A stretch of DNA of 64,000 nucleotides from Deltaproteobacteria bacterium (GTDB lineage: Bacteria; BMS3Abin14). A program made the translations under genes and the position numbers. The notes under the pieces are model-generated. The model was not told the origin of the DNA, searched no databases, and saw only the letters and a program-made list of their open reading frames with translations. This document shows, one piece after another, positions 5,000-59,347 of the stretch; the stretch's first letter is position 1; each line of letters begins with the position of its first letter. The DNA lies in assembly GCA_013151915.1 (NCBI GenBank), contig JAADHJ010000044.1, positions 67,029-131,028 of the forward strand. The letters run 5' to 3'.

Positions 5000-5323
5000 G
5001 TTTGTCTTCCTGATTGAACTGGTTATTCTACACAAAATCTCCGTTTGCCGGGGACGGACCACCTCCACAGCCACACATTATAACGTCCAGTGCCGGGTTA
5101 TCAAGCGGAACATGAAGAATCAGCTGATGATGAAGCTGTCGTACGATGGCGGTTTGTGTCTGATGGAACTGCTGCGAGGATCTCGACCATGAATATTTTT
5201 CAATTTTTCTCCTTGATTTCCTTCCCATTCGCTACTAAATAATTATTGAGGGCCTACTGGTGGGGCACCTTTGGCCATGCCCTGTGTCAGCCTTTAAGCG
5301 GAAAGCCTGGGGTGGAATATTCC

Positions 5324-6055
5324 ATGATGTTCAAGCCGATCAAAAAGACGAGGGTGTACGAGGAGATTGTCGCAAAAGTGACCGAGATGATTAACAATGG
5401 CATTCTCAAGGAGGGTGACCAGCTTCCGGGGGAGCGGGAGTTGGCGGAGACGTTCAGCGTAAGCAGATCGTCCCTTAGGGAAGCTCTCCGAACACTTGAG
5501 AGCCAGGGGTTTCTGGAAAGCCGGCAGGGAAACGGGACATACGTGGCCAGCCAGCCCGTCGAGCTGTTGGTGAAACCCTTTGCCTCTGTAATCCTTTCTG
5601 AAAAGGGTGCGCAGAGTGAACTGTTCGAGATGCGGCGGTTAATAGAACCTCAGGTCGCCTATCTGGCTGCCGAACGGGCCACATCTGAAGAGATTGACCA
5701 GATGGAAAAAATCCTTGCCGATCAGGAATCGCAGGTTGCCGGGGGAGGGACAGGCACGGATGTTGATAAGGCGTTTCATTACGCGTTGGCTGAGGCGACA
5801 AAAAACAGGATTCTTCTGCGTATGATGGACGCCGCCATGGAGTTTTTCAGCGAGAGCCGTGATAACTACCTGCAGATAAAGGGAAGGCCGGAAAAATCCC
5901 TTGTTCGCCACAAAGAGATGCTCAACGCCATTAAAGCGGGGGAGAAGAAGCTCGCGGCCGGTATAATGCGTGAGCACCTCGAGGATATCGAGAGCAGTCT
6001 GTTTGAGGTAAAAGACAGGAAAATCTCGGCGAAGTCCGTCGGTAAAAGCAACTGA
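5324..6055 (+). CDS. GntR-family transcriptional regulator, FadR/FCD subfamily (paralog 1)
   Basis: The N-terminal GntR HTH (ERELAETFSVSRSSLREALRTLESQGFLESRQGNGTYV) is followed by a C-terminal FCD-type helical domain. It is about 93% identical to the paralog at 44831..45565. Confidence 0.8.
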   Translation: MMFKPIKKTRVYEEIVAKVTEMINNGILKEGDQLPGERELAETFSVSRSSLREALRTLESQGFLESRQGNGTYVASQPVELLVKPFASVILSEKGAQSELFEMRRLIEPQVAYLAAERATSEEIDQMEKILADQESQVAGGGTGTDVDKAFHYALAEATKNRILLRMMDAAMEFFSESRDNYLQIKGRPEKSLVRHKEMLNAIKAGEKKLAAGIMREHLEDIESSLFEVKDRKISAKSVGKSN

Positions 6056-6260: not shown

Positions 6261-7310
6261 TTACTGAATGATGTAAGGCATTCCCCAGGCAGTGGAGTTG
6301 TAGGGCGCTTCAAGCTGGGCGAAGGTTGCCGAGTCGATGACGTCCACGGCCGCGAAATGCCGTCCCTTGCACGGTCCTATTGTGTAGGTCCGGCTGTAAA
6401 TCCCGTCTCCCGCGGTTATGTCTCCATTGGTCCCGTCATCGAACATCACGTCTCTTATTCTTTTCCCAAAGAGCCCGGGTCCCGGGCGGTGAAGAAAGAC
6501 GAACTGCGCCGGGTTGAAACCGGAGGTGGATGAATTTTCCACCTGGACCTCCACCAACACCTCTTCGCCGGTGGAAAATGTGGGAATTTCCCCCGGGACC
6601 TCGAAGAGATTATCGGGGGCGTCGGTTTCCCACACTGTCTCTCCGTTAACCGATGCGCCGAGCCATGTTATCTCGACGGTCTGCTGGTCCATGTTGGTCA
6701 GGTTAATATCCACAGGGGAGATTTCCGTTAATTTCCAACCTGCGGGCGTCCTGGCGAATTGAGCATGACGCACAGCTGTGTCCTCGAAGGGCTTGCCCCA
6801 TAGAACCAGGGTGCCGCCGACATCATCGGCGATAAAGAAGGTCCCCTCGAGGAAGTGGGTGACCGATACGGAGGCCGTGTCGCCGACGATTGAGATGTCG
6901 ATATCTTTTTGCACCAGGTTGACATCCCCCCTCCACCAGAAACGCGGCAGGCTGGCCGCTGTCCCTTCCTCGGCGGAGAGGGATTGAAGGGATACCACCC
7001 CGGTATAAGGAACTGCCTGGGCCTGGGATGCGGCTTCCTCATCTTCGCTGGTGTCCGTAAGATCGGTCCCGAAGAGCCCCGATGATTCCATCTCACCGAC
7101 AATCGCCGCCTGATCGGCCGACATGGGCTGAGTCGATTCGGCCGTGCCGCCGCATCCCGCCGCCAGGAGGCCCAGGAGGCCCAGGAGGGAAATTGACGCC
7201 AGTGTCAGAGACACACACGGTCTTTTGCCATGGAAAACCGCCTTGATACCATCCATCTTTTTCTCCTTTCCCTTTTTGACAACTTTTTTTTCGCGCAGGG
7301 TTCTGAACAT
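6261..7310 (-). CDS. Hypothetical lipoprotein (secreted)
   Basis: Signal peptide with lipobox (LLGLLAAGCGG). There is no recognisable catalytic motif. The start could be the internal Met (MDGIK, about 7256). Confidence 0.5.
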   Translation of the reverse strand: MFRTLREKKVVKKGKEKKMDGIKAVFHGKRPCVSLTLASISLLGLLGLLAAGCGGTAESTQPMSADQAAIVGEMESSGLFGTDLTDTSEDEEAASQAQAVPYTGVVSLQSLSAEEGTAASLPRFWWRGDVNLVQKDIDISIVGDTASVSVTHFLEGTFFIADDVGGTLVLWGKPFEDTAVRHAQFARTPAGWKLTEISPVDINLTNMDQQTVEITWLGASVNGETVWETDAPDNLFEVPGEIPTFSTGEEVLVEVQVENSSTSGFNPAQFVFLHRPGPGLFGKRIRDVMFDDGTNGDITAGDGIYSRTYTIGPCKGRHFAAVDVIDSATFAQLEAPYNSTAWGMPYIIQ

Positions 7311-11454: not shown

Positions 11455-11512
11455 GTGCCTGGAACCCGACGTCCAAAGTTCAACGTTCAAGGTTCAACGT
11501 TCAAGGTTCAAC
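11455..11512 (+). repeat. GTTCAA-hexamer repeat element, copy A1 (CCTGGAACCCGACGTCCAAAGTTCAACGTTCAAGGTTCAACGTTCAAGGTTCAACC)
   Basis: Direct repeats of GTTCAAC/GTTCAAG. A related element occurs at 12964..13010 and in the MITE-like insert at 22840..23073. Confidence 0.6.
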
Positions 11513-14347: not shown

Positions 14348-15399
14348 GAACCCCAAAGATGATTGGGGAAAGGAGCGTATTTCCCCCCGGACGCGGGTGC
14401 CGGCCGGCCCTTTTCATCCTGGCCGCGTCATTGTCTGTCATCATCCTTCAGACATCCATCGCCTCAGGCGCAAACAACGGCAGGGCTGTCCCTTTCCTCG
14501 ACCTGTACCGCCCCGCCGGGAAACCCGGGATTCAGGTTGCCGCGTTCAAGTCTTTTGGATCCACGCGGATTCCATATGCTGACGCAACGGTGTTCGTCGT
14601 GTTACCTGACGGCGGGGCCTGGTTCGGAAAAGCGGACTTACTCGGCCGCTGCGAGATCCCGGCGCGGGTGATTCTACCCCATATTGAAACGAAGAGCGGC
14701 CCGGCGACCTTGCGGGTTGCCCTGTCGCTTAACGGGACCGTGGATGAGAAGAGGATCACCGTCTCCAAAAGCGAGCTTGTTCAGTATGCTGATAGCGCGG
14801 CCGACAGTAAGGTTGAAGAGGGGAACGCCCTGGCGCGGAAGGGTGGGCTTCGTGAGGCGATCTCCCTTTACAGGGAGGCGCTTGTCTTAAATCCCCTTTC
14901 CTCGCGGGCGGCCTACAACATCGCCTTCGCCTACGAGAAGCTGGGGATGATGCGCATGGCTGTCGCCGCCTACGCGGATTACCTGCTTCAATGCCAGGCA
15001 AAGGCGCAGGATCGGGAGGACGTCAAGAGGAGAGTCATCAATCTTTCCCGGGGGTTGACCCCCCCGCCCCCCGTGCTCGCGCGCATCTTCGGCATGCTTG
15101 ACAAGGCGTCCGCGCTTGCCGTTGGGGGAGATTCTTTTGGGGCCTTGCGGCTCTACGAGATAGCCCAGTCCGTCGCTCCCTGGTGGGCGGAACCCTACTA
15201 CGGTGCGGGAATCGTATACTACCACTTAGCGATCCAGAACTCTTTTTCCTATGCGGACAATGCCATCCGCTGTCTGAAGAATTTTCTGGCCGCCGTCCCC
15301 CCGGAGGACGCCAGGATTGAGGCCGTACGAAAGAGGGTAAAAGATCTGCTGACAATAAAGGAGGGATTAGATGCACCGAAAACAGTTTCTTCATACTAG
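14344..15399 (+). CDS. Secreted TPR-repeat protein
   Basis: Signal peptide plus TPR-like A/Y/L-rich repeats (AISLYREALVLNP, AAYNIAFAYEKLG, AEPYYGAGIVYYHLAI). The start may be GTG 14344 or ATG 14359. Confidence 0.55.
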   Translation: MRTPKMIGERSVFPPGRGCRPALFILAASLSVIILQTSIASGANNGRAVPFLDLYRPAGKPGIQVAAFKSFGSTRIPYADATVFVVLPDGGAWFGKADLLGRCEIPARVILPHIETKSGPATLRVALSLNGTVDEKRITVSKSELVQYADSAADSKVEEGNALARKGGLREAISLYREALVLNPLSSRAAYNIAFAYEKLGMMRMAVAAYADYLLQCQAKAQDREDVKRRVINLSRGLTPPPPVLARIFGMLDKASALAVGGDSFGALRLYEIAQSVAPWWAEPYYGAGIVYYHLAIQNSFSYADNAIRCLKNFLAAVPPEDARIEAVRKRVKDLLTIKEGLDAPKTVSSY

Positions 15400-16918
15400 C
15401 CTTCGGATGAGGACAACGGTTCTTTACGCCTTGACTCTGGCCATGGCGCTGTTTCTTGTCTCCTGCGCCGGGGGGCAGGTCAAGAAAAAGGAGCCGGTCT
15501 ACCGTTTAGGTGTGCAGATCTCTACGTTCGCTCCCCTGGTCGCGCATGATCTCGGTCTGCCCGAGGATATCAAAGGTGTGCTTGTCATGGCTGTGTCCCA
15601 GGGGTCGCCTGCGGCTACGGCGGGGGTCCGGTCCGGGGACGTCATCGCGGGAATAAAGATGCCTGACGGAAAACTGCAGGAAACGCCCGATACCACTGCC
15701 CTTTTAGAACTGCTCAAGAAGATGCCCATAGACCGGTCGGTAGCGCTTTCCATCCTGCGGGACGGAAAAACGATGGATATCTCCAGCATGCGGAGCACCA
15801 GGCAATTTTCCGGGTACGTTCAGCCCGGGTCCCGGCCCGAGCCGAGGACGATCAAGGTGGCGCCGGACGGATCCGGCGACTGCCGCACCATCACCGGGGC
15901 CATGCTTTCCGCCCGTCCGGGCGACACGATCCTGCTCTCTCGTGCTCCCGGTCCCGGCGGGGTGTACGGTTCCTTCCAGCTCTTCCTTGACAACCTGACC
16001 GTTCGCTCGGAAGACCCGGCGAACCGGGCGGTTGTGCAGCAGATCGTTGTGGATGGCCTTTCCGGAGTGAAGCTGGCCGACCTCGAGTTCCAGGTGAGCC
16101 AGCAGGGAAGCTGGCCCGGAGTGCATGTCCAGGGTTCCAAAGAGGTGACGGTGGAAAACTGCACCTTCTCAGGATATGTAAAAGCGGTCACCATCAGCGG
16201 TTCCAGAGAAGTCTTTATCAGTGGCAACCGTATGGAAGAGAATGCCCTGGGAATATTGGTGGATTCCGGTTCGGAATTTAAAATTAAGGATAACCTGATT
16301 ACCGGAACCGGGGTCCGGTGGGCCGACAGTAAGGGGATCTACATCTCAGGTTCCCGTGGAACGGTTTCGAATAATACGATCCTTTACTACAAGGTAGGGA
16401 CCGAAGCGTTTATAAATGACCTGAAGAACGGCGGGTATGGCGGGTATAATGTTACCGGCGTAGGTATCTACGTGGGCCAGGGTTCCAACGTTTCCATCGA
16501 GAACAACATCGTGTATGACAACAGCGCCGGGATATACGTGCAAGCGGGCGAAACAACCCACTACCGCGTCGAGTACAACGATATCTTTCAGAATACCATG
16601 GAGACCGGACAAACTGGAAGTAGAGACTTTGCGGATTACCTTACCGGCTCCGACTGGAACATATCAAAGGGGGTCAAGAAGAGGCATGAGTCGTCGCCCA
16701 TTCTGTCGCTTTCCATATGGGACCACAACTACTACGCGCCAAACCCCATGCCCCTTTCGCGGACTAACCTTTCCCGGGATCCGTTTTTCAACGACCCTGT
16801 GCGCGGCGACTATCGCCTGGCCGCCGACTCGCCGCTCGTCGGAAGGGGCAGAGGCGGAACCTACATCGGAGCTTTCCCGCCGATAGAGCAAAAGGCAGGG
16901 ACCGGGGAGTTCAAGTAA
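15371..16918 (+). CDS. Lipoprotein with PDZ domain and right-handed parallel beta-helix (pectate-lyase/NosD-like) repeats, paralog 1
   Basis: Lipobox LVSCAGG. PDZ region GVLVMAVSQGSPAATAGVRSGDVIAGI. The beta-helix N-cap is DGSGDCRTITGAM...PGDTILL, followed by repeated NNTI/ENNIVYDNSAGIYV-type rungs. Confidence 0.7.
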   Translation: MHRKQFLHTSLRMRTTVLYALTLAMALFLVSCAGGQVKKKEPVYRLGVQISTFAPLVAHDLGLPEDIKGVLVMAVSQGSPAATAGVRSGDVIAGIKMPDGKLQETPDTTALLELLKKMPIDRSVALSILRDGKTMDISSMRSTRQFSGYVQPGSRPEPRTIKVAPDGSGDCRTITGAMLSARPGDTILLSRAPGPGGVYGSFQLFLDNLTVRSEDPANRAVVQQIVVDGLSGVKLADLEFQVSQQGSWPGVHVQGSKEVTVENCTFSGYVKAVTISGSREVFISGNRMEENALGILVDSGSEFKIKDNLITGTGVRWADSKGIYISGSRGTVSNNTILYYKVGTEAFINDLKNGGYGGYNVTGVGIYVGQGSNVSIENNIVYDNSAGIYVQAGETTHYRVEYNDIFQNTMETGQTGSRDFADYLTGSDWNISKGVKKRHESSPILSLSIWDHNYYAPNPMPLSRTNLSRDPFFNDPVRGDYRLAADSPLVGRGRGGTYIGAFPPIEQKAGTGEFK

Positions 16919-17832
16919 TGACGGACGGAATGCAGGGGCGACCGCCGGGAACGCGGCGGATTGCCACTTCTGCAGCGCTTATTCTGATACTGGCGTTCTT
17001 CCTGCCGGCGGTTTCCTTCGCCGGGACGCAGGAAGGGTGGATCTCCGATTACATTGCGCGGCTGGTCAGGACACGGGATGAGGCCGGCCGGAAGGTCAGG
17101 GACACGGAACGAACAGTATCAAAGACGGACCGGCTCCTTTCCCTCGCCAGGGAAGCGAACAATACTCAGGCCGAAGCGTTGGCCGGAGAGGCCCGGACCA
17201 TTGCTCTCGCCGCCAGGGAGAAGTACAGGCGTGCCCTGGACAGGTCTGAAGCGGGCATCAGGATGGCCCGTTCTTATTTGGAGAAGTCCGACGCCGATGC
17301 CGGCTATGCTCGGAATACGGGAGTATTTTTTCGTATGGGTACAGTGGATGTTCGACGGGGCGGCACACAGGTCTGGAACCCACCCGGAGAAGGCGCGGTG
17401 GTCCTGGCCCCCGGCGACTCGGTGCGTACCGGTTCCGACGGTCGGGTCGAGCTGCGGGTGATGGCCGACGGCTCACGGATAGATGTGGCTCCAAGCACCA
17501 CCTTGAAAGTGATTAAGGACGCTATAAGGCTTGATCTGGGAAAGGTTCTTCTCAGGATCGCAAAGGGTATTAACCGAAAATTGATACGCTTCAGGGTGAA
17601 AACCCCCGTGGCGGTGTGCGGGGTGCGGGGGACCGAGTTCGCCGTCCATACGGAGCCTGACGGCCGGACGGTGGTTTCCGTTCTCGAAGGGAACGTTGAG
17701 ATAACCAGTCTGAATGGCGGAGAGCCGGTTATCCTCAAAGCGGGGCAGGAATTGGTCATTTCCTCGGACCACCGCCCCTTGGTCCCCCGGAAATTCGACC
17801 TCGCAGAAATCAGACGCGGTTTTGAAATGTGA
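16918..17832 (+). CDS. Secreted FecR-domain protein
   Basis: Signal peptide plus a FecR-like beta-sandwich region (LAPGDSVRTGSDGRVELRV.DGSRIDVAPST.LKV...VKTPVAVCGVRGTEFAV). The start overlaps the upstream stop (TAATG). Confidence 0.65.
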   Translation: MTDGMQGRPPGTRRIATSAALILILAFFLPAVSFAGTQEGWISDYIARLVRTRDEAGRKVRDTERTVSKTDRLLSLAREANNTQAEALAGEARTIALAAREKYRRALDRSEAGIRMARSYLEKSDADAGYARNTGVFFRMGTVDVRRGGTQVWNPPGEGAVVLAPGDSVRTGSDGRVELRVMADGSRIDVAPSTTLKVIKDAIRLDLGKVLLRIAKGINRKLIRFRVKTPVAVCGVRGTEFAVHTEPDGRTVVSVLEGNVEITSLNGGEPVILKAGQELVISSDHRPLVPRKFDLAEIRRGFEM

Positions 17833-17966
17833 AAATAAGGGGACCTTTGAAAGCAACGGCGGGCGCCGGGACTGGAATGTGAAACCCTTGTGAAACATGT
17901 ATGTAAGTATGGGAATATAGGTGTAGGAACGCAGCACAATAACCGTGCTAACCATAAGGGAGGGTA

Positions 17967-19478
17967 TTGATGGGTCGAAAACAGTATTTTCATACCAGTC
18001 TTCGGATGAGGACAATGGTTCTTTACGCCGTGGTTCCGGCCATGGCGCTGTTTCTTGTCTCCTGCGCCGGGGGGCAGGTCAAGAAAAAGGAAGCGGGTTA
18101 TCGTATCGGCGTGAACATGGGTACCCTCAATCCCGCATTGGCGCAGGATCTCGGTTTGCCGGGGAACCTGAAAGGTGTGGTTGTCGTGGCGGTGTCCCAG
18201 GGGTCGCCCGCGGCTGCGGCGGGGATCAGACCAGGGGATGTTGTCCTGGGGATAAAAACGGCGGACGGAAAGCTGCAGGAAACGCCCGACACCAATGTAT
18301 TCGTAGAGTTATTGAAAAAGATGCCGATAGATCGCCCGGTGAAATTCTCCGTGCTCCGCGGCGGAAAAACGATGGATATTTCCAGCACGCAGGGCACCGG
18401 GCAATTTTCCGGGTACGTTCAGCCCGGGTCCCGGCCCGAGCCGAGGACCATCAAGGTGTCGCCGGACGGATCCGGCGACTGCCGCACCATCACCGGGGCC
18501 ATGCTTTCCGCCCGCCCGGGCGACACGATCCTGCTCTCTCGTGCTCCCGGTCCCGGCGGGGTGTACGGTCCCTTCCATGTTTTCCTGGACAACCTGACCG
18601 TTCGCTCGGAAGACTTGGCGAACCGGGCGGTTCTGCAGCAGATTCTTTTAAAGGGTCTTACCGGTGTGAAATTGAGCGGCCTCGATTTTAGGGGGAGTCC
18701 GCAGGGAAGTTGGCCGGGGGTGCATATCAACAACTGCAACAGGGTCACGGTGGAAAACTGCACCTTCTCCGGGTACTTCAGGGCGGTGGGCATCCGCGCC
18801 TCCCAGGGGGTTTCCGTTACGGGCAGCCGTATGAAGAAAAACGCTCAGGGGATCGTTGCTTCTCAAACGGATTTTAAAATTAACGGCAATCTTATTGTCG
18901 GGGCACAAAGCGGGGGGCACGACAAGCAGGGGATCTGGATCTCAGGTTCCCGTGGAACGGTTTCGAATAATACGATCCTTTACTACAAGGTAGGGACCGA
19001 AACGTTTATAAATGGCCTGAAGAACAGCAGGTATAATATTACCGGCGTAGGTATCTACGTGGGCCAGGGTTCCAACGTTTCCATCGAGAACAATATCGTG
19101 TATGACAACAGCGCCGGGATATACGTGCAAGCGGGCGAAACAACCCACTACCGCGTCGAGTACAACGACATCTTTCAGAATACCACTAAGACCGGACAGA
19201 CGGAAGATGGAGATTACGCGGATTACCTTACCGGGTCGAACTGGAACTTCTCCAAGGGGACCAGGGTCATAAAGAAATCGTCTCCCCTCCTTACGGTTTA
19301 CGGATGGGAGCATAACTACTTTGCTCCCATCCCCGTGCCCCGCTCACGGACCAACCTTTCCCAGGCTCCGTTCTTCAACGACCCGACCCTGGACGATTAT
19401 CGGCTGGCCGCCGACTCTCCCCTCGTCGGGAGGGGCAGAGGCGGGACCTATATTGGAGCTTTGCTTTCCCGCCGATAG
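17967..19478 (+). CDS. Lipoprotein with PDZ domain and beta-helix repeats, paralog 2
   Basis: Same architecture as 15371..16918. The 5' roughly 300 bp and 3' roughly 500 bp are nearly identical in nucleotides to paralog 1, and the middle has diverged. The C-terminus is truncated by a 5-bp GCTTT duplication relative to paralog 1. Confidence 0.7.
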   Translation: MMGRKQYFHTSLRMRTMVLYAVVPAMALFLVSCAGGQVKKKEAGYRIGVNMGTLNPALAQDLGLPGNLKGVVVVAVSQGSPAAAAGIRPGDVVLGIKTADGKLQETPDTNVFVELLKKMPIDRPVKFSVLRGGKTMDISSTQGTGQFSGYVQPGSRPEPRTIKVSPDGSGDCRTITGAMLSARPGDTILLSRAPGPGGVYGPFHVFLDNLTVRSEDLANRAVLQQILLKGLTGVKLSGLDFRGSPQGSWPGVHINNCNRVTVENCTFSGYFRAVGIRASQGVSVTGSRMKKNAQGIVASQTDFKINGNLIVGAQSGGHDKQGIWISGSRGTVSNNTILYYKVGTETFINGLKNSRYNITGVGIYVGQGSNVSIENNIVYDNSAGIYVQAGETTHYRVEYNDIFQNTTKTGQTEDGDYADYLTGSNWNFSKGTRVIKKSSPLLTVYGWEHNYFAPIPVPRSRTNLSQAPFFNDPTLDDYRLAADSPLVGRGRGGTYIGALLSRR

Positions 19479-19527
19479 AGCAAAAGGCAGGGACCGGGGA
19501 GTTCAAGTAATGACGAACGGGATGCGC

Positions 19528-19610
19528 GACTCTGGACCCTTCGACAGGCTCAGGGCAGGCTCTGGACTCTGGACTCAGGACACTGGACTCTGGACTTCAG
19601 GTTCCGTACC
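19528..19610. repeat. CTGGACT heptamer tract plus GGTTCCG...CGGAACC hairpin, copy D1
   Basis: Reads ctggact ctggact caggaca ctggact ctggact then GGTTCCGtacccCGGAACC. It lies exactly at the break of homology with the paralog 1 locus. Confidence 0.5.
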
Positions 19611-19623: not shown

Positions 19624-20490
19624 CTACCCTCCGAAGACCACCGTTTTCCCATTGTGGATCAGCACTCTGTTTTCAACGTGCATTCCAACCGCCCTGGCCA
19701 GCACCATCTTCTCGATGTCCAGGCCTTTCCTCTTCAGCGTGATCACGCTGTCGCGGTGGGTCACAGGGACAACGTCCTGAAAGATGATGGGACCTTGGTC
19801 CAGCTTCTCGGTAATGTAGTGGCTCGTAGCGCCGATGATCTTGACCCCCCGCATGAATGCCTGCCTGTAGGGATCGGCCCCGACAAAGGCGGGAAGGAAG
19901 GAGTGGTGAATATTGATGATACTGTTGCGGTAGCCGTTGACGAACTTGGATGACAGGATCTGCATGTACCGCGCGAGGACGATGGTATCGATATTTTCTT
20001 TCCTGAGAAGCTCCATCACCTGTTGTTCCTGATCCTTTTTATTGTCCTTCGTGACCGGGAAGCAGTGGAATGGAACGTGGTAGTATCCGGCGATGTCCCT
20101 CTGGTCCTCGTGGTTGCTGATGATGCAGGGGATATCCACCTGGAGGTGGCCGCTCCGCCACCTGTACAGGAGATCAAGGAGGCAATGGCCCTGCCTGGAG
20201 ACCATGATGGCTATCCGTTGTTTCCGGTCTGAGAAGAAAAGTCTGTGGGCCATTCCCAGACGCCAACAGACCTTGCTGAACTCATCATCCAGGTCCTCCC
20301 GCGGGATCTCGAAGCCGTCCATGTCCCAGCGGATCCTCATGAAGAACATGCTCTCCACGGGATCGGTGTGCTGGTCGAGGTAGACGATGTTCCCGCCGTG
20401 ATCGAAGATCCAGTTGGTAATTGTGGCGATGATCCCCTTTGTATCCTTACCCTGGATCAGCGCGGTTACTATGGGGGCCTTGTCACCCAT
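19624..20490 (-). CDS. purU: Formyltetrahydrofolate deformylase
   Basis: N-terminal ACT domain plus formyltransferase core (HHSFLPAF, SHYITE.LD.GPII motifs). The start is taken at ATG 20488-90 (GGGGA ribosome-binding site) rather than TTG 20496. Confidence 0.85.
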   Translation of the reverse strand: MGDKAPIVTALIQGKDTKGIIATITNWIFDHGGNIVYLDQHTDPVESMFFMRIRWDMDGFEIPREDLDDEFSKVCWRLGMAHRLFFSDRKQRIAIMVSRQGHCLLDLLYRWRSGHLQVDIPCIISNHEDQRDIAGYYHVPFHCFPVTKDNKKDQEQQVMELLRKENIDTIVLARYMQILSSKFVNGYRNSIINIHHSFLPAFVGADPYRQAFMRGVKIIGATSHYITEKLDQGPIIFQDVVPVTHRDSVITLKRKGLDIEKMVLARAVGMHVENRVLIHNGKTVVFGG

Positions 20491-20513
20491 GCTCAATCAT
20501 CCCCTTTACTGTT

Positions 20514-20693
20514 GGTAGGGTCGTAAAAAGTCCATGAATGGCTTTTTACTCCACGGAAAGCGAAAAGTGTCATTTTCACTTTCCTTACAAATCAACAACC
20601 TGTCCCGTAAATCGATGACCTGCGGGACAAGTCATTGATTTGGGCGCCCCTTAATGGGCGCGATGATGATTTCTTACGAAGTCATCATCTTTA
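20514..20693 (+). repeat. 180-bp multi-hairpin intergenic repeat, unit B copy 1
   Basis: Five consecutive imperfect palindromes: AAAAAGTCCAT/ATGGCTTTTT, GGAAAG..CTTTCC, CAAATCAACAACCTGTCCCG..CGGGACAAGTCATTGATTTG, GCGCCC..GGGCGC and GATGA...TCATC. It is tandem with copy 2. Confidence 0.7.
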
Positions 20694-20880
20694 GGTAGGG
20701 TCGTAAAAAGTCCGTTAATGGCCTTTTTTCTCAACGGAAAGCGAAAAGTGTCATTTTCACTTTCCTCACAAATCAAGAACCTGTCCCGCAAATCGATGAC
20801 CTGCGGGACAAGTCATTGATTTGGGCGCCCCTTAGCGGGCGCATTGATGACTTTTTACCAAGTCATACGAAGTCATCAAT
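20694..20880 (+). repeat. 180-bp multi-hairpin intergenic repeat, unit B copy 2 (about 90% identical to copy 1)
   Basis: Direct tandem duplicate of 20514..20693. It ends in GTTGATGACTTTTTACC..AAGTCATCAAT. Confidence 0.7.
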
Positions 20881-21072
20881 ATTCATTGTAATGAATATTC
20901 GTTGTCGATGCTGGATGATATTATAACGTGCTGTATTTTAAAGAAAAGATAATAAAGGTCAACATGTATTAGGGCTGAGACTTCCACCCTCTTCATTATT
21001 CCTCTCGACTGTGCTAATTTTCTTCCTTTCGGATCAACCTGAAACAGATATTACGTGCGGAGGAAAGCTCCC

Positions 21073-22839: not shown

Positions 22840-23073
22840 TTCCACGTTCAAGGTTTAACGCCCAACGGGGAAAGCACCTTCAACGTTCAACAATGATAGG
22901 GTCGCAAAAAGTCCATTTATGGCTTTTTGCTCTACCCATCAGTGGGCGCATTGATGACTTTTTGCGATGGTGTCAACCATTGAACTCTTGAACCTTTGAA
23001 CCATTGAACCTTTGAACCATTGAACTCTTGAACCATTGAACTCTTGAACCATTGAACCTTGAACGTGGAACTC
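22840..23073. mobile_element. MITE-like element with about 20-bp terminal inverted repeats (TTCCACGTTCAAGGTT / AACCTTGAACGTGGAA)
   Basis: Perfect terminal inverted repeats lie at 22840-22859 and 23054-23073. The interior carries GTTCAA hexamer arrays (about 14 copies) and a deletion derivative of unit B (GGGTCGCAAAAAGTCCATTTATGGCTTTTTGC...GGGCGCATTGATGACTTTTTGCGATGGTGTCAACC). It is inserted between gatA and gatB. Confidence 0.6.
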
Positions 23074-24608: not shown

Positions 24609-24648
24609 TTCTGGACTCTGGACCTTGGACTCTGGACTTTGGGTTCCG
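24609..24648. repeat. CTGGACT heptamer tract, copy D2
   Basis: Reads ctggact ctggacc ttggact ctggact ttgGGTTCCGgcatCGGAAAC. It has the same composition as 19528..19610. Confidence 0.5.
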
Positions 24649-29741: not shown

Positions 29742-32391
29742 TCTCTATCTTATTGACGGCAGTTCCTATATCTATCGCGCTTATCACGCCATACGCGGCC
29801 TGTCCACAAGGGATGGTTTTCCCACAAATGCCGTGTTCGGCTTTGCCAATATGCTGCTGAAGATTCTGCGGGATCATCAGCCGACCTACGTTGCCATAGT
29901 CCTGGATTCCAAAGGGCCCACATTCCGCCACGAACGATACCCGCAATACAAGGCCAACCGCCCCCCCATGCCCGAAGATCTCAGGGTTCAGCTGCCGCGC
30001 ATTGAAGAACTCATTGATGCGTTCAATATCCCGGCCCTGCAAAAGGAGGGGTTCGAGGCCGACGACATCATTGCCACCCTCGTAAAACGTTGGTCCGGGA
30101 AGGTGGACAGTACCGTCGTCGTTTCGTCGGACAAGGATCTCATGCAGTTGGTCTCCGGGCGTGTCCGCATGCTCGATACCATGAAGGAAAAGTGGATCGG
30201 GGTTGAGGAGGTCCGGGAACGCTTTGGCGTGGACCCTGAGCGGGTCCCGGATGCCCTCGCCCTGGCGGGCGACACAAGCGACAATGTTCCGGGACTGCCG
30301 GGCGTTGGTCCAAAAACCGCGGGGAAGCTCATATCCGCCTACGGTACCCTGGAGGGCCTCATCGAAAGAAAAGATGAGATTGATGGTAAGGTCGGCCGGA
30401 ATCTTGCTTCCGGGGTAGACGCTGTCCGACTGGCCCTATCGCTGGTAACCCTCGACAGGGATGTTGATCTTCGTATTACCATGGACGATCTTACGGCCTG
30501 CGGGCCTGATGTGGAGTCCCTCCGGACGATCTTCCAGGAACTTGGTTTTACCAGCCTTATCAGGGGACTGACGCCGCAGACAAGCCTTGGCCGCGAGGGT
30601 TACCATATCATCGGCAGCGAGGAGGAATTGATAGATCTGGCCGGGCGTCTTCGGGGTGTCGATATTCTGGCGGTGGACACGGAGACAACCGACAGAGATG
30701 CCATGAAAGCCCGCCTGGTGGGCATCTCCCTTTCATGGGAACCGGGCCGGGCTGCCTATGTACCCCTGACACACAGCTACCTCGGGGTTCCCCGGCAGAT
30801 ACCTGAACCACGGGCCAGGGAGATTCTCGGCCCCGTTCTCGGTGACCCGTCCATCCACAAGGTCGGACAGAACGTCAAGTACGACATGAAGGTGCTTGCG
30901 CGTTCCGGCTGGGCGCTTGAAGGCGTTCGATGGGACACGATGATCGCTTCCTACCTGGTTAACCCTTCCAGACGGTCCCACAGCCTTTCGGAGATCTCCG
31001 CGGAGCGGCTCAACCACACCATGATCTCCTACGATGAGGTCACCAAGAAGGGGAAAAAGCGGATACTGTTTTCCGATGTCCCGGTGGAAGAAGCAGGGAT
31101 ATACTCGTGCGAGGACGCCGACGTAACTTTCAGGGCACTGAAGCCCCTGCTGGAGGACCTCGAGAGGATGGAGCTTCTCGATCTGTTCCAGAATGTGGAG
31201 ATGCCGTTGGTTCGGGTTCTCAAGGAGATGGAGATGGTCGGGGTGCTGCTGGATATCCGGCCTCTTCTGGATCTATCCTCGGAGCTTTTGGACAGGCTCA
31301 AGGAGCTGGAGGCAAAAATTCACATGGAGGTCGGCAGACCCTTCAACGTCGGTTCTCCCAAACAGCTTTCCCATGTTCTGTTCGAGGTCCTGAAGCTCCC
31401 CGCGCTCAAGAAAACCAAGACAGGATACTCCACCAGCAGTGATGTCCTTATCGAACTTTCCTCAAAACATCACCTGCCGGCCATGGTGCTCGAGTACAGG
31501 AGCATGGCGAAGCTCAAATCCACCTACCTTGATGCCCTTCCCGCCCTCATCAACCCGGAGACCGGGAGGATCCACACCTCGTTCAACCAGACCGCCACTG
31601 CCACAGGCAGGCTTTCGAGCTCCAATCCCAACCTGCAGAACATCCCGATCCGGACCGAGCTTGGCAGAAGGATACGCGGGGCGTTTGTCGCGCCGGAGGG
31701 AAGTGTCCTGTTGTCGGCGGACTACTCCCAGATCGAGCTGAGAATCCTTGCCCACCTTTCCGGGGACACGGAGCTGTTGGAGGCGTTTCGCAAGGGCGAG
31801 GACGTCCATGCCAGAACCGCCCGGCAGGTGCTCGGTGCCGGCGAGGATGTGGAACCTGAGCTGAGAAGGCGGGCCAAAGTCATAAATTTCGGCATCATCT
31901 ACGGGATGAGCGCTTTCGGGCTGTCAAAGGAGCTTGGAGTCCATCCGAAAGAGGCCGCGGAGATCATCGATGGATACTTTGACGTCTATTCGGGGGTAAA
32001 GGCCTATATTGATCGGACGCTGGAAGAAGCCAGGACGAACGGATACGTCATGACGCTCATGAACCGGCGACGCTACCTCCCGGAGCTCACGAGTGCCAAT
32101 CCAAACCAGAGGCAGCTCGGGGAGCGTATGGCGGTAAACACTCCCATTCAGGGGACGGCGGCGGATCTCATCAAGGTGGCCATGATCGCGATCCACGGGG
32201 AACTGGGGGAACGGGTCCCGGAGGCGAGGATGATACTTCAGGTTCACGATGAACTTGTTTTCGAGGTACCCGAGGATCATCTCGCCCGGACCTGTGAGAT
32301 CGTCAGGGATGGCATGGAGAAGGTTGCAGCGCTGCAGGTCCCGCTTGTTGTTGATTTGGGAACAGGCGCGAACTGGGCGGAGGCCCATTGA
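29734..32391 (+). CDS. polA: DNA polymerase I (5'-3' exonuclease, 3'-5' exonuclease, polymerase domains)
   Basis: N-terminus LYLIDGSSYIYRAYHA and polymerase motifs DYSQIELRILAHLS, RRRAKVINFGIIYG and QVHDELVFE are present. Length is 885 aa with an apparent TTG start. Confidence 0.9.
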   Translation: MSSLYLIDGSSYIYRAYHAIRGLSTRDGFPTNAVFGFANMLLKILRDHQPTYVAIVLDSKGPTFRHERYPQYKANRPPMPEDLRVQLPRIEELIDAFNIPALQKEGFEADDIIATLVKRWSGKVDSTVVVSSDKDLMQLVSGRVRMLDTMKEKWIGVEEVRERFGVDPERVPDALALAGDTSDNVPGLPGVGPKTAGKLISAYGTLEGLIERKDEIDGKVGRNLASGVDAVRLALSLVTLDRDVDLRITMDDLTACGPDVESLRTIFQELGFTSLIRGLTPQTSLGREGYHIIGSEEELIDLAGRLRGVDILAVDTETTDRDAMKARLVGISLSWEPGRAAYVPLTHSYLGVPRQIPEPRAREILGPVLGDPSIHKVGQNVKYDMKVLARSGWALEGVRWDTMIASYLVNPSRRSHSLSEISAERLNHTMISYDEVTKKGKKRILFSDVPVEEAGIYSCEDADVTFRALKPLLEDLERMELLDLFQNVEMPLVRVLKEMEMVGVLLDIRPLLDLSSELLDRLKELEAKIHMEVGRPFNVGSPKQLSHVLFEVLKLPALKKTKTGYSTSSDVLIELSSKHHLPAMVLEYRSMAKLKSTYLDALPALINPETGRIHTSFNQTATATGRLSSSNPNLQNIPIRTELGRRIRGAFVAPEGSVLLSADYSQIELRILAHLSGDTELLEAFRKGEDVHARTARQVLGAGEDVEPELRRRAKVINFGIIYGMSAFGLSKELGVHPKEAAEIIDGYFDVYSGVKAYIDRTLEEARTNGYVMTLMNRRRYLPELTSANPNQRQLGERMAVNTPIQGTAADLIKVAMIAIHGELGERVPEARMILQVHDELVFEVPEDHLARTCEIVRDGMEKVAALQVPLVVDLGTGANWAEAH

Positions 32392-32421
32392 TGTTGATGA
32401 CTTTTGCAAAGTCATCAACAT
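32391..32421. repeat. Short palindrome ATGTTGATGACTTTTGCAAAGTCATCAACAT (repeat C) overlapping the polA stop codon
   Basis: A near-perfect 31-bp palindrome. The same GTTGATGACTTTTTGC...AAGTCATCAAC motif recurs at 37451, 42193, 22942, 20861 and 59479. Confidence 0.55.
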
Positions 32422-32455
32422 TGACCGTTCTTCTACCGATGTGGTACGTTTTTTC

Positions 32456-37122: not shown

Positions 37123-37447
37123 GGAAACCAGACGACTCATATTTATTTTCCTGGGCATGGGCGCCGTTACCTACCTACCCAGACTTATCCCCCTCGCCGC
37201 CCTGTCCCAGGCCGCCCTCCCGGACCGTCTGATGAGGTGGCTTCGCTACCTGCCCCCGGCCATCCTCTCCGCCCTTATCCTCCCTGGGGCTGTCACCTCC
37301 GGCGGCGCCATGGACCTGACTCCGGCGAACCCATCGGTCTGGGCTCTCCTGCTTAGTTTCGCCGTAGCGGTTAAAACCAGGAGTTTGATCCTGACCATGG
37401 TTGTGGGCGGCATCGTGATGTACCTCGGTCAGGTCCTGTTGGGCTGA
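37123..37447 (+). CDS. azlD: AzlD-family small membrane protein
   Basis: 108 aa with three hydrophobic segments (TYLPRLIPL....LRYLPPAILSALI). It sits immediately after azlC. Confidence 0.65.
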
Positions 37448-37450
37448 ATA

Positions 37451-37477
37451 ATGACGACTTTTTAGGAAGTCATCAAC
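37451..37477. repeat. Repeat-C palindrome ATGACGACTTTTTAGGAAGTCATCAAC immediately after the azlD stop
   Basis: Same motif as 32391..32421 and the 3' module of unit B. It is followed by GCGCCCACTTAA, which resembles the GGGCGC module. Confidence 0.5.
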
Positions 37478-37485
37478 GCGCCCAC

Positions 37486-38205
37486 TTAACAGGCCGGTTT
37501 TTCCCCAACGTGAAGAAAGGCGATGCCGAAAGTGAGGGGGCGGAACCTTACCTGCTCGAAGCCGGTCTCGGACATCTTTTCACTCAGGTCTCCGGGGTTT
37601 GGAAAGGAGTCCACCGAGCTGGGAAGATAACGGTATGCCCCTGATCTGCCGGAAATCATGCCTCCCAGAACGGGGAGGACATGGTGGAAGTAGAATCGAA
37701 AGAGGGGACCTAAGAGTCGATGGTCCATTGGGGAGAACTCCAGGACGATGACACGGCCCCCCGGCTTGAGCACCCGGAACATTTCATTTAGCCCTGTCGG
37801 CCTGTCGGGTAGGTTACGGAGACCGAAGGCGATGGTGACGGCGCTGAAGGTGCAGTCCGGAAATGGCAGGGCCATGGCGTCACCTGCCGTAAGGGTGATC
37901 CTTCCCTTTCCTCCCGTGCGAACCTTCGCCGCAGCCTGGTCGAGCATGGGAATGGTGAAATCCACGCCCACGATTTTTATTTCTCCCGGGATGTTTCTGA
38001 CCAGAGTCAAAGCCACATCGCCGGTCCCGGTTGCAAGGTCCAGGATGGGGGCTTTGCCCTGTCCATGCACCTCCTTGACCATATCCTTCCGCCAGCGGAT
38101 ATCCGCTCCCAGGCTCAGAATGTGGTTGAGCAGATCATAGTGCCCGGCTATGGATGAGAACATCCCCCTGATCGACTGGGATTCCTGTTTATGTTTTTGG
38201 GCCAT
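37486..38205 (-). CDS. ubiE: Demethylmenaquinone/ubiquinone C-methyltransferase
   Basis: UbiE/MenG N-terminus (VRGMFSSIAGHYDLLNHILSLG) and SAM motifs (ILDLATGTGD, VLKPGGRVIVLEFS). The start is taken at the internal ATG (MAQKHK). Confidence 0.8.
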   Translation of the reverse strand: MAQKHKQESQSIRGMFSSIAGHYDLLNHILSLGADIRWRKDMVKEVHGQGKAPILDLATGTGDVALTLVRNIPGEIKIVGVDFTIPMLDQAAAKVRTGGKGRITLTAGDAMALPFPDCTFSAVTIAFGLRNLPDRPTGLNEMFRVLKPGGRVIVLEFSPMDHRLLGPLFRFYFHHVLPVLGGMISGRSGAYRYLPSSVDSFPNPGDLSEKMSETGFEQVRFRPLTFGIAFLHVGEKPAC

Positions 38206-42548: not shown

Positions 42549-42635
42549 TTGGTCTGACCACAGTGGTCGTACCATCATACCATCGTACCATCATACCACT
42601 ATGGAACGGTAACAACCGGGGGGTGTCAGAGGAAA

Positions 42636-44816
42636 GTGAAAGTTGAAGCTAAAATCAGGCCAAGGGAAGAACTCTCTCTTCGGGTAGCCGAAGCGTTCAT
42701 CGAGGACGTGGGCAAGGGGTTTGCCCGCGTGGATACCGAGGAGTTGAAGAGCATAAGAGCCGTTCCCGGCGATCTACTCATGATTTCCGGCCGCGGGTCT
42801 ACGGTGGCTCGCACGGCGCAGGCTACCCCTGAGTATTCCGGACAAAGCCTGATTCAGATAGACGGTATTACGCGGGAAAATGCCAACGTTTCGGTTGATG
42901 AATGGTGTACAATTCGGAAAGTCCCCTTCAAACCGGCTGAGAGCATCCTGCTCTCACCTATGGAAACCGCCAGTATAATTCCGAAAGATTCCGAAATCCC
43001 CCATATACTTCAGATGCTTTCAGGGCGGTACGTGGTGCTTGGCGACAAAATCCAGGTCACCCTCTTCGGTACGCGGCCCCAATTCTTTATTGTTGATGGC
43101 GCGAGTCCGCGAGGGGCGCTCCTGATAACTTCCAATACCTCCATCTCCTTTAAAACTCCCGATGTCTTGCACGAAAAGGCTGCCAGAATTTCCTACGAGG
43201 ATATTGGAGGGCTGGAAAAGGAGTTAAGCCGTGTCAAGGAGATGATAGAGCTTCCGTTGAGATTTCCGGACCTCTTTACCAAGCTTGGCATTGATCCCCC
43301 AAAAGGTGTCCTCCTCTCAGGGCCTCCGGGCACAGGAAAAACCCTTGTGGCCCGCACCATCTCCAGTGAGGTCAGGGCGCATTTTATCCACGTGAATGGT
43401 CCCGAGGTCATCCATAAGTATTACGGGGAAAGCGAGGCTAAGCTAAGGGAGGTATTTGAAGAGGCACGAAGAAACGCTCCCAGTATCATTTTCCTCGACG
43501 AGATCGATGCTCTCGCCCCGAGGAGGGCCAAGGTTATCGGGGACGTTGAAAAACGTGTTGTCGCCCAGCTGCTTGCCCTGATGGACGGCCTGGTTTCCAG
43601 GGGGGATGTGGTGATTATCGGCGCCACCAATCTTCCTGAGCTGGTCGATCCGGCACTTCGGCGTCCCGGACGTTTCGATCGTGAGATCAGCATCGGCGTT
43701 CCCAATAGACCGGGCCGTCTCCAGATTCTGAAGATCCATTCCCGCAAGATGCCGCTTGCAGCCGATGTCGATCTGGACCGCCTTGCAGAAATCACCCATG
43801 GGTACGTGGGAGCCGATATTGCCGCCCTTTGTAAGGAGGCAGGCATGGCGACCCTGCGGCGAATCATGCCGGAGATCAAGTTCGAGGTGGACAAAAAGCC
43901 GGTGCTGAAAAATGGTTTAAGCATTGAGGTTACCGCCGAAGATTTCCTGACGGCCTTCAAGGGAGTCGAGCCGACCTCCACCCGGGAGTTCATGGTTGAA
44001 CGGCCTCGTCTTTCCTTTAACGACATCGGGGGATTGAAAGAGATCAAGCGGAAACTTCGTTCGATCGTACAGCTTCCCCTGCAGGGATTGTCTCTCTTTG
44101 CCAATTCCCGCCTGGGTCCGCCCAAGGGGGTTCTTTTCTCCGGTCCGTCCGGGACCGGGAAGACCCTGATGGCCAGGTCCCTTGCGGGGGAAATGGGCAT
44201 GACCCTGATAGTCGTTGATCCTCCGACCCTTCTGTCGAAGTGGGTTGGCGAGTCTGAAAAGGGACTCAGGGAGGTATTCAAACGGGCAAAGCAGGCTTCG
44301 CCCTGCATCCTGTTTTTTGACGAGATCGAAACCATCGCCTCGGCGCGTTCCGCTGATGATGCGGGTAATGTATCCCAGAGAATGGTCAGCCAGCTTTTCA
44401 GGGAACTGGATGGCCTTCACGGTTCTCTCGGGGTTGTCGTCATTGCCGCAACGAATCGAATTGACCTGATGGAGCCGGCCCTGCTCAGAGCCGGACGTTT
44501 TGACTATGTCGTTGAATTTCCCCTTCCGGATCGTGAGGAAAGGCAGGAGATCCTTGAGACCTATTTGCGGTCCCTGCCGTTGGATACCGATGTGGATATC
44601 GATACCCTGGCGGATGCGAGTGAGGGATGGACCGGAGCCGACCTGGAGGCTTCATGTAAGAGGGCCATCATGTTGGGGCTGGAAGAATGTTCGAAAGGCG
44701 ATGGGGAGGCTGATTTTTCACGCTGTGTATTGACCTCCCATCATTTCGCTGAAGCGGCCCGGCAGCATGCCGCTTTGTCTAATATTTCGTCGTCAGCCTT
44801 TAAGCGGAAAGGTTGA
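42636..44816 (+). CDS. Cdc48/p97/VAT-like double AAA+ ATPase (N-domain + D1 + D2)
   Basis: The Cdc48-N-like double-psi barrel start is followed by two Walker A motifs (GPPGTGKTLVA, GPSGTGKTLMA), two Walker B motifs (IIFLDEID, ILFFDEIE) and second-region-of-homology arginines. It has a GTG start. Confidence 0.8.
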   Translation: MKVEAKIRPREELSLRVAEAFIEDVGKGFARVDTEELKSIRAVPGDLLMISGRGSTVARTAQATPEYSGQSLIQIDGITRENANVSVDEWCTIRKVPFKPAESILLSPMETASIIPKDSEIPHILQMLSGRYVVLGDKIQVTLFGTRPQFFIVDGASPRGALLITSNTSISFKTPDVLHEKAARISYEDIGGLEKELSRVKEMIELPLRFPDLFTKLGIDPPKGVLLSGPPGTGKTLVARTISSEVRAHFIHVNGPEVIHKYYGESEAKLREVFEEARRNAPSIIFLDEIDALAPRRAKVIGDVEKRVVAQLLALMDGLVSRGDVVIIGATNLPELVDPALRRPGRFDREISIGVPNRPGRLQILKIHSRKMPLAADVDLDRLAEITHGYVGADIAALCKEAGMATLRRIMPEIKFEVDKKPVLKNGLSIEVTAEDFLTAFKGVEPTSTREFMVERPRLSFNDIGGLKEIKRKLRSIVQLPLQGLSLFANSRLGPPKGVLFSGPSGTGKTLMARSLAGEMGMTLIVVDPPTLLSKWVGESEKGLREVFKRAKQASPCILFFDEIETIASARSADDAGNVSQRMVSQLFRELDGLHGSLGVVVIAATNRIDLMEPALLRAGRFDYVVEFPLPDREERQEILETYLRSLPLDTDVDIDTLADASEGWTGADLEASCKRAIMLGLEECSKGDGEADFSRCVLTSHHFAEAARQHAALSNISSSAFKRKG

Positions 44817-44830
44817 GGGAAGAATATTCC

Positions 44831-45565
44831 ATGTTGGTCAAACCCATTAAGAAGACGAAGGTGTACGAGGAGATCGTCGCAAAAGTGACCGAGATGATCA
44901 GCAGCGGCACCCTCAAGGAGGGTGATCAGCTTCCGGGGGAACGGGAGTTGGCGGAGACGTTCAGCGTAAGCAGATCGTCCCTTCGGGAGGCTCTCCGAAC
45001 GCTTGAGAGCCAGGGGTTTCTGGAAAGCCGGCGGGGAAACGGGACATACGTGGCCAGCCAGCCCGTCGAGCTGCTGGTGAAGCCCTTTGCATCTGTAATC
45101 CTTTCCGAAAAGGATGTGCAGAGTGAACTGTTCGAGGTACGGAGGTTAATAGAACCTCAGGTCGCCTATCTGGCTGCCGAACGGGCCACATCTGAAGAGA
45201 TTGACCAGATGGAAGAGATCCTTGCCGATCAGGAATCGCAGGTTGCCGGGGGAGGGACAGGCACGGATGTTGATAGGGCGTTTCATTACGCGTTGGCTGA
45301 GGCGACAAAAAACAGGATTCTTCTGCGTATGATGGACGCCGCCATGGAGTTTTTCAGCGAGAGTCGTGATAACTACCTGCAGATAAAGGGAAGGCCGGAA
45401 AAATCCCTTGTTCGCCACAAAGAGATGGTCAATGCCATGAAAGCGGGGAATAAGGAGCTTGCGGCCGGCATAATGCGTGAGCATCTGGAAGATATTGAAA
45501 ACAGTCTGATCTCGGTCAACAGAAAGGAGGAACTTGATAAAACCGAACAGAAAGGGGGGATATAG
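44831..45565 (+). CDS. GntR-family transcriptional regulator, FadR/FCD subfamily (paralog 2)
   Basis: About 93% amino-acid and nucleotide identity to 5324..6055 over roughly 715 bp. It lies directly upstream of the por operon. Confidence 0.8.
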   Translation: MLVKPIKKTKVYEEIVAKVTEMISSGTLKEGDQLPGERELAETFSVSRSSLREALRTLESQGFLESRRGNGTYVASQPVELLVKPFASVILSEKDVQSELFEVRRLIEPQVAYLAAERATSEEIDQMEEILADQESQVAGGGTGTDVDRAFHYALAEATKNRILLRMMDAAMEFFSESRDNYLQIKGRPEKSLVRHKEMVNAMKAGNKELAAGIMREHLEDIENSLISVNRKEELDKTEQKGGI

Positions 45566-59294: not shown

Positions 59295-59347
59295 CCTCCC
59301 TGAAACATTGTTGAGCGGTGATAAACCACGAAAAGCTCCATTATTGA

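Follow-up and report, generated by a model that had tools for sequence, protein, structure and literature searches.

The MITEs of bacteria (miniature inverted-repeat transposable elements) are bounded by terminal inverted repeats (TIRs), are flanked by direct repeats that wane with age, occupy AT-rich intergenic targets and are associated with stem-loop transcripts (PMC10969869). Here we describe a hairpin-rich repeat found in a 64,000-nt stretch of DNA (the window; positions 67,029 to 131,028 of contig JAADHJ010000044.1, assembly GCA_013151915.1) from a bacterium of the BMS3Abin14 lineage. Two copies lie in tandem upstream of purU, a third lies upstream of ppdK, and an internally deleted copy is located in the gatA-gatB spacer. 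The repeat is very probably a new, previously undescribed MITE family, moved in trans by 6-bp staggered cuts at the target AANNTT. A preliminary description of the window had offered a REP/MITE-like selfish element, a shared cis-regulatory module or a structured non-coding RNA; the selfish element was borne out in its MITE form by the TIRs, the 6-bp target duplication, the dispersed intergenic copies, the empty sites and the derivative forms.

The element resembles described bacterial MITEs (Correia/CREE, MITEAba12, Chunjie and Nezha) in being small, non-coding and present in many copies, with TIRs and a decaying target duplication, and also in its AT-rich intergenic targets, its presence/absence polymorphism and its predicted stable stem-loop transcripts. 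It shares with Correia a preference for sites just upstream of genes and inversion at a given site (PMC10969869). No sequence similarity to described families was found among those tested. The Correia elements of Neisseria (CREE/NEMIS) have ~26-bp TIRs, an internal promoter or integration host factor site and a TA duplication, whereas the present family duplicates 6 bp at AANNTT; because Correia duplicates TA, membership in that group fails. Bacterial MITEs also form one long hairpin driven by their TIRs, in contrast to the five separate hairpins found here.

Other palindromic repeats share individual features with the element. The BOX elements of S. pneumoniae (boxA-boxB(n)-boxC) are likewise composed of modular hairpin units that may be absent, occur repeatedly or be nested, and co-transcription with neighbouring genes, as expected for BOX (PMC3049150), would by analogy be expected here. 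BOX, RUP and SPRITE are, however, over-represented between convergent genes (PMC3049150), where this family is depleted, its own enrichment being in divergent spacers; BOX is also unrelated in sequence and host phylum, and a target duplication is clear in the present family. ERIC (or IRU) of enterobacteria is similarly an imperfect palindromic intergenic repeat of ~127-150 bp that occurs in transcribed regions and in both orientations, but it has another sequence and other hosts and folds mainly as one long hairpin. Effects at the RNA level, through RNase E, are documented for some ERIC copies (PMC10969869, PMC3049150), whereas the present family is known from sequence alone. Repetitive extragenic palindromic (REP) sequences and their BIME clusters, which are RAYT-associated, share with it a GC-rich hairpin, the clustering and the extragenic location. 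REP units are, however, 20-40 nt long with a GTAG/CGTC head and no target duplication (PMC3733652), in contrast to the present element, which measures 153 bp and has both TIRs and a duplication of 6 bp. The IS200/IS605-derived elements known as PATE differ in that they lack both TIRs and duplication and insert 3' of a fixed tetra- or pentanucleotide. Because of its inverted-repeat ends and true duplication, the element belongs to neither the REP/BIME nor the IS200/IS605-derived group.

Ends, target duplication and derivative forms

The family consensus is 153 bp long, within the ~50-500 bp typical of MITEs, and has no coding capacity; no open reading frame (ORF) of at least 60 aa was confined to copies. 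Five hairpins (H1 to H5) that fold independently follow one another along its body, and of these H1 holds the left and H5 the right terminal repeat. The TIRs are 19 bp long and imperfect, matching at 15 of 19 positions, with the left repeat reading GATAGGGTCGCAAAAAGTC and the right repeat being the reverse complement of GATGACTTCGCAAAAAGTC. The ends of the element were placed at GATAGGGTCG...GAAGTCATC from a flank-inclusive alignment together with filled and empty orthologous sites (L077/L128 and L180/L006, where L-numbers denote loci around copies in metagenome-assembled genomes (MAGs) or metagenome contigs, ~1.2 Mb in total). The element-end sequence is also written GATAGGGTCGYAAAAAGTC, and the target motif TCAANNTTGA.

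The hexamers flanking the copies indicated a target-site duplication. They were identical in 26 of 129 copies, compared with 2.7 expected when flanks were paired by shuffling, and matched at five of six positions in 30 further copies (14.1 expected). The signal was specific to this register, as shifts of one or two positions in either direction gave 0-6 exact matches instead of 26, and a 5-mer version of the test found 27 identical pairs among 136 where 2.6 were expected. The logo of the target is TC|AAYNTT|GA; the hexamer that is duplicated reads AANNTT, most often with (T)C before it and G/A, then A/G, after it, which makes the target palindrome-like. In flank pairs such as AACTTT/AACTTT, AATCTT/AATCTT and AACGTT/AACGTT the variable central bases agreed copy by copy, which demonstrates that the target was truly duplicated, as opposed to a fixed motif lying beside the element. 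The duplications were decayed in older copies. Among insertion sequence (IS) families, 6-bp duplications are uncommon, occurring in IS481-like elements and a few others, and the target motif together with the duplication length provides a handle for hunting the responsible transposase.

The element is modular. Composites of ~300 nt carry H1-H4 of a diverged subfamily, termed b, between H1-H2 and H3'-H5 of the a type, and other forms include [H1-H2-H3]n arrays, copies of ~105 nt without H3, and copies of ~80 nt like the one in the gat spacer of the window. Forms with internal deletions kept both ends. The shortest, of ~43 nt, consist of the ends only, with the two inverted repeats fused into one hairpin, perhaps through slippage between the direct repeats CTTTTTGC that H1 and H5 carry. 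Such ends-only derivatives were found at L056 5685-5740, L079 2580-2630, L111 4618-4670, L091 2673-2725 and L153 9790-9840, and some retained a perfect 6-bp duplication (AACCTT on both sides in L111).

A search for the invariant H2 core, with one genome per species, recovered 70 genome loci, nearly all of them in a few uncultured MAGs (CSMAG_1715, PFL40, N04_bin.36, SZUA-178, SZUA-226 and others) and many at contig ends. An independent H1 pattern recovered at least 120 loci from metagenome contigs; the same pattern had no match in viral contigs, and hence no carriage by phage was seen. A profile hidden Markov model (nhmmer) run on the 1.2 Mb of loci gave 378 non-overlapping hits, of which 147 were full length. 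Full-length copies were mostly 155-170 nt long (hit spans, 155-190 nt), and the copies represented ~230 insertion sites, 229 of which entered the context analysis; tandem arrays were present at 42 of the 229. The host is the candidate-phylum BMS3Abin14 lineage, which is uncultured and comes from marine sediments, cold seeps and vent sulfides. The family should be useful in annotating and assembling genomes of this poorly known candidate phylum; many contigs break at copies. One diverged full-length copy (L038 5419-5575, 86 bits) was located in a MAG labelled Mariprofundaceae, on a contig binned as a Zetaproteobacterium; it reflects either horizontal spread beyond the main lineage or a mis-binned contig.

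Occupied and empty sites and their genomic context

The GatA protein encoded in the window is 92% identical to that of 'bacterium BMS3Abin14' (GCA_002897695.1), compared with ~65% outside the lineage. BMS3Abin14 is listed as an unclassified bacterium in the NCBI taxonomy and has been treated as a candidate phylum (PMC12400630). Its purU-gatC spacer (L191) is 204 nt long, compared with 565 nt in the window; the two spacers align on either side, and what BMS3Abin14 lacks is the tandem. The gatA-gatB spacer is similarly shorter (113 nt, compared with 277 nt), the extra DNA in the window being the deleted copy and arrays of octamers. Further pairs consisted of L077 (filled) with L128 (empty) and of L180 (filled) with L006 (empty). 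BMS3Abin14 itself holds one right-end remnant of the element, which indicates that the family is old in the lineage.

The ppdK upstream site was occupied in the window and in L070 and L161. L070 had seemed to carry a conserved orthologous regulator in the same place, a proposal that was rejected because the L161 element lies in the opposite orientation and identities among the copies are 80-88%. The flanks of L070 and L161 are ~95-97% identical, whereas their elements point in opposite directions and are only 88% identical. The window copy at this site was best matched by the L017 copy at another site (91%) and was only 80-82% identical to the L070 and L161 copies at its own. This orientation polymorphism and the non-orthologous copies indicated a hot spot that was hit repeatedly, not an inherited regulator.

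In the purU-gatC spacer, a stretch of ~56 nt (20920-20975) differs by one base from BMS3Abin14 and exceeds the flanking coding DNA in conservation. This block probably holds sites through which purU and the divergent gatCAB genes are regulated in common. It contains a predicted sigma-70-like purU promoter on the minus strand (20935-20962; TTGACC-16-TAAAAT, 10/12), identified from a consensus scan and the conserved block. Besides this match, read from 20962 to 20935, no other good promoter-like site was present on the purU strand, and the number of such sites was not above shuffle expectation. Given the conserved block and its promoter-like site, the tandem appears to have been inserted between the likely promoter and the ribosome-binding site of purU. 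If transcription starts from this consensus match, the tandem would have extended the purU leader from ~76 nt to ~437 nt. A second predicted promoter-like site, again a consensus match only, lies upstream of the third copy in the ppdK sense (59565-59593, minus strand; TTGACG-17-TAAATT with TG, 9/12).

None of the 229 sites was inside a gene, the copies occurred in both orientations, and the adjacent genes were unrelated. When compared with element-free spacers of the same loci, copies were enriched between divergent genes (odds ratio (OR) 3.4, p = 9e-6) and scarcer where the neighbours converge (OR 0.43, p = 0.03), statistics that are approximate because genes were called with a crude ORF and codon-usage caller. 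An orientation bias relative to genes was considered and rejected: the minus sense was favoured with respect to co-directional neighbours at 25:9 (p = 0.009) in the first sample and at 56:28 overall, and the ratio fell to 38:24 (p = 0.10) once orthologous sites were merged. The upstream preference may be explained by the AT-rich palindromic target alone. AANNTT targets are abundant in the AT-rich DNA upstream of genes and in arrays of heptads and octads, which would explain where copies accumulate.

These arrays are short intergenic tandem repeats of 7-8-nt units, located in the window at 11469-11512, 19560-19596, 22975-23064, 24612-24642 and 42567-42598 and in L191 at 6458-6572. Their units include ACGTTCA (six times), CTCTGGA (five times), AACCATTG (11 times), TGGACTCTGGACCT and TACCATCA. 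The BMS3Abin14 gatA-gatB spacer carries other heptads (CGTTGGA, and CTCTGGA four times); the arrays vary within the lineage. AANNTT, the target of the MITE, occurs in several of them; arrays such as AACGTTC and AACCATTG supply insertion sites, which fits both the gat copy and L180.

Hairpin conservation and the competing explanations

The preliminary description had portrayed each unit as a chain of five palindromes, and five local hairpins that fold far better than shuffled sequence were indeed recovered. As RNA, one unit has a predicted folding energy of -78.2 kcal/mol on the plus strand (z = -9.3) and -85.3 kcal/mol on the minus strand (z = -10.8), relative to dinucleotide shuffles. The five-hairpin consensus comprises 45 pairs, 14 of which changed on both sides with pairing kept among 38 full copies. 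Column shuffles gave 3.1 +/- 1.2 such pairs (none of 500 reached 14) and slid alignments gave 0-4, although relatedness among copies inflates counts of this kind. Among 144 unique copies, nine core pairs showed at least two Watson-Crick types, the clearest being pair 19-43, which is CG in 72 copies and TA in 67. The b subfamily showed covariation in every stem. The changes on both sides, together with the covariation in the b subfamily, indicate that the hairpins are selected or otherwise maintained.

Selection on secondary structure, which had been proposed from two hairpins of the ppdK copy, was thus supported by the family-wide covariation, whereas neither of the two examples turned out to be compensatory. 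The central hairpin of the ppdK copy had been taken for a shortened replacement. The short H3 of 35 nt is, however, the family norm (130 of 144 copies, the ppdK copy included), and the long H3 of the purU pair is a private palindromic expansion that no other copy in the related loci (1.2 Mb) showed. In H4, the family consensus has the 3' G (GGGCGCG); the ppdK copy alone carries the 5' G>C change, which adds one pair and compensates nothing. Covariation and positional bias, the absence of which would have counted against that description, were both found: 14 pairs covaried, and copies were over-represented upstream of genes and under-represented between convergent ones.

The strand asymmetry of the stems was mixed. 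Canonical pairing was 93.8% on the minus strand and 91.6% on the plus strand (144 copies), and core positions in H2 and H3 were skewed towards minus-strand G.U pairs (12, against 3 in the opposite sense). H5 favoured the plus strand, and rare recent stem variants favoured the opposite strand (23 of the A.C type, 37 of the G.T type). A minus-strand RNA as the better folder, suggested by the G.U pairs of H2 and H3 in the first 38 copies, gave way to this mixed picture in 144. An intrinsic terminator was rejected, as terminator-like matches were weak and not above shuffles and H4 has no T tract after it. No promoter-like sites were predicted inside copies. The proposed Rfam scan gave no known structured RNA: over the whole window nothing reached gathering score, and 20400-21000 yielded no hit even at E <= 1.

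Taken together, the inverted ends, the target duplication and the empty sites suggest the following course of events. A transposase supplied in trans would cut the target (T)C|AANNTT|G(A) with a 6-bp stagger, leaving a 6-bp duplication. In the purU leader, one copy would have entered the stretch from the conserved promoter block to the ribosome-binding site, gained its private H3 expansion, and then been duplicated in tandem. Another would have entered the ppdK upstream site, which was hit independently in other genomes, while the gatA-gatB copy would later have lost its middle and two further copies would survive as right ends. Once inserted, an element would probably be co-transcribed with its neighbour and tolerated; the presumed parts of this scheme are the transposase, transcripts that run across the element and any influence it may have on expression.

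Several observations weigh against this account. Of the ORFs that recurred in 1.1 Mb of flanking DNA, a sample made up of loci around copies and not of whole genomes, none encodes a transposase; ORFs of at least 150 aa were clustered, and the top clusters matched only housekeeping and regulatory proteins in Pfam. No transposase-sized ORF lay within solo ends, which proved to be mini forms of ~43 nt or truncated copies beside ordinary genes. H2-H4 are kept by compensatory change even though they seem dispensable in the ends-only derivatives, and a purely selfish model is for this reason insufficient on its own. Copies are up to ~91% identical between genomes whose coding DNA is only ~72% identical, which requires recent spread, horizontal transfer or constraint. 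The approximate gene calls behind the context statistics are a further point on this side. It is conceivable, though improbable, that the five-hairpin body as a whole, beyond its inverted-repeat ends, is selected as a portable RNA or single-stranded DNA module that would alter how mRNAs of central-metabolism genes such as purU and ppdK are processed or how stable they are, or as the recognition site of a transposition machinery that reads structure; selection of this kind would explain the compensatory changes in the subfamilies, the ~91% identity against ~72%, and the enrichment upstream of genes.

A related and similarly doubtful explanation, to which we assign marginally less weight, is that the element is an exapted MITE whose five-hairpin body is a functional RNA module that alters mRNA processing, stability or translation of the adjacent gene and is kept for that reason; in the transcript of a 5' leader or operon spacer it could, for instance, be cut by RNase III or RNase E. 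The preservation of the hairpins by compensatory changes (14 pairs against 3.1 +/- 1.2, with covariation of H1-H4 in the b subfamily) would agree with such a role, as would the minus-strand G.U skew of H2 and H3 (12 against 3), the enrichment in divergent gene-upstream spacers with depletion between convergent genes, the location of the purU tandem between the conserved promoter block and the ribosome-binding site, and the expanded H3, which would form a duplex of ~25 bp in the minus sense. There is also precedent, in Correia and ERIC, for transcribed MITEs being cleaved by RNases (PMC10969869, PMC3049150). The orientation bias was nevertheless weak after orthologous sites were merged (38:24, p = 0.10), and the rare variants, at 23 to 37, ran the other way, such that no single transcribed strand was singled out. 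Either orientation occurred at the same site, the closest relative lacks the purU copies, and the AANNTT target alone can yield the context bias. If the hairpin body does act as RNA, the family would be another mobile element that re-wires the leaders of housekeeping genes.

The remaining two explanations are less probable still. An element of the REP/BIME type, or an IS200/IS605-derived PATE, would be moved by a tyrosine transposase as single-stranded hairpin DNA, without TIR recognition or duplication. This is very improbable, although the chain of hairpins with its GC-rich, REP-like stem H4, the head-to-tail and composite clusters, the strand-asymmetric wobble in the H2 and H3 stems, and the flanks TTGAT...ATCAA, which recall the fixed target or cleavage motifs of such elements, all point in its direction. 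In particular, insertion beside TTGAT in the manner of IS200/IS605 was ruled out by the pairwise matching of variable flank bases, which marks a true duplication. The 19-bp inverted-repeat ends and the length of 153 bp, against 20-40 nt for REP, also disagree with it, the hairpin feet carry no GTAG/CGTC tag (REP as defined in PMC3733652), and a search around copies, though not exhaustive, turned up no gene of the RAYT or TnpA-like kind. A gene-specific cis-regulatory leader, a riboswitch-like RNA or a free-standing non-coding RNA common to purU and ppdK deserves the least credence of all. It was suggested by the strong folds and by the arrangement in the window, where all full copies share one orientation and lie 23-57 nt upstream of a minus-strand start codon. 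Across the family, the genes beside the ~230 sites are unrelated, every kind of spacer is represented, copies point either way, and the ends carry inverted repeats and a target duplication. BMS3Abin14 lacks the element at purU, the ppdK element is flipped between near-identical genomes, and no Rfam match was obtained at E <= 1. The shared cis-regulatory module or structured RNA tied to purU and ppdK in the preliminary description was therefore set aside, given the unrelated neighbours, the two orientations and the absence of purU copies from BMS3Abin14. The element is an ordinary kind of selfish DNA and not a gene-specific regulatory RNA, a caution against taking the purU and ppdK leaders for conserved regulatory RNAs.

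Copies and neighbouring features in the window

The tandem of 180-bp units by purU, the third copy by ppdK and the deletion derivative in the gatA-gatB spacer, all noted from the sequence beforehand, were recovered by Tandem Repeats Finder (TRF), a repeat finder and nhmmer. TRF reported 20514-20866 as 2.0 copies of a 181-nt unit (91% matches, score 599), and the repeat finder and nhmmer linked the tandem units to the third copy (~59345) and to the short piece (~22894). A four-way alignment of the window copies revealed a common architecture, and exact limits were set after the ends had been defined from the family alignment.

The first copy (20514-20686, plus strand) has all five hairpins complete, with the private expanded H3, and is supported by nhmmer (168 bits), TRF, the folds and the family-alignment ends; its edge is 23 nt from the purU ATG (20490). 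The second (20694-20877, plus strand) is its tandem sister, at 87.5-91% identity, and shares the expanded H3 and the GGTAGGG left end; it also carries a 10-nt internal duplication in H5. Since the long H3 is confined to these two, the pair derives from local duplication of one inserted copy. The left flanking hexamer of the tandem is ACTGTT (20508-20513) and its partner is AATATT (20878-20883), with the register taken from the family analysis of target-site duplications; these hexamers match at four of six positions and read as a decayed duplication. Directly past the second copy, at 20878-20899, lies a perfect 22-nt palindrome, AATATTCATTGTAATGAATATT, that is not in the BMS3Abin14 spacer. It could be a footprint, a part of the insertion or an operator-like site.

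The third copy (59346-59505, plus strand) is full length with the standard short H3, lies between ATTATT and AACATT (4/6), and has its edge 57 nt from the ppdK ATG (59288). The plus orientation of the full copies near minus-strand start codons, as first described, was thus found at 23 nt for purU and 57 nt for ppdK. The internally deleted copy (22895-22974, plus strand) consists of H1, the 3' half of H4 and a degenerate H5, with both ends kept; it lies within the heptad and octad arrays of the gatA-gatB spacer, flanked by AACAAT and AACCAT (5/6). As these flanks show, the target duplications in the window are partly decayed. Two right-end remnants were also identified. One (32343-32424, plus strand; nhmmer 20.4 bits) comprises the 3' arm of H3, a decayed H4 and an intact H5 (GTTGATGACTTTTGCAAAGTCATCAAC) and lies right after the stop codon of an 885-aa ORF. 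The other (37445-37488, minus strand; 21.7 bits) comprises H5 and half of H4 and occupies a gap of ~40 nt between convergent genes.

The gene downstream of the tandem, purU (19624-20490, minus strand), encodes a formyltetrahydrofolate deformylase with Pfam Formyl_trans_N and ACT domains, and ppdK (56625-59288, minus strand), downstream of the third copy, encodes a pyruvate phosphate dikinase with the Pfam domains PPDK_N, PEP-utilizers and PEP-utilizers_C. The genes gatC, gatA and gatB lie on the plus strand with Pfam support, and the tandem is located in the divergent purU/gatC spacer. Divergent from ppdK, a 605-aa ORF (60026-61843) had no Pfam match and has a relative on L046 that is 69% identical at the nucleotide level.

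Two further repeats were observed in the window. A tandem duplication of ~1.6 kb (15347-16933 and 17946-19525, spacing ~2.6 kb, 80-97% identity in pieces) covers paralogous PDZ-plus-beta-helix (NosD-like) proteins. Two genes for GntR/FCD regulators (5246-6055 and 44813-45565), ~39.5 kb apart, share a 300-nt stretch that is 91% identical, and relatives are located on L134 and L004.

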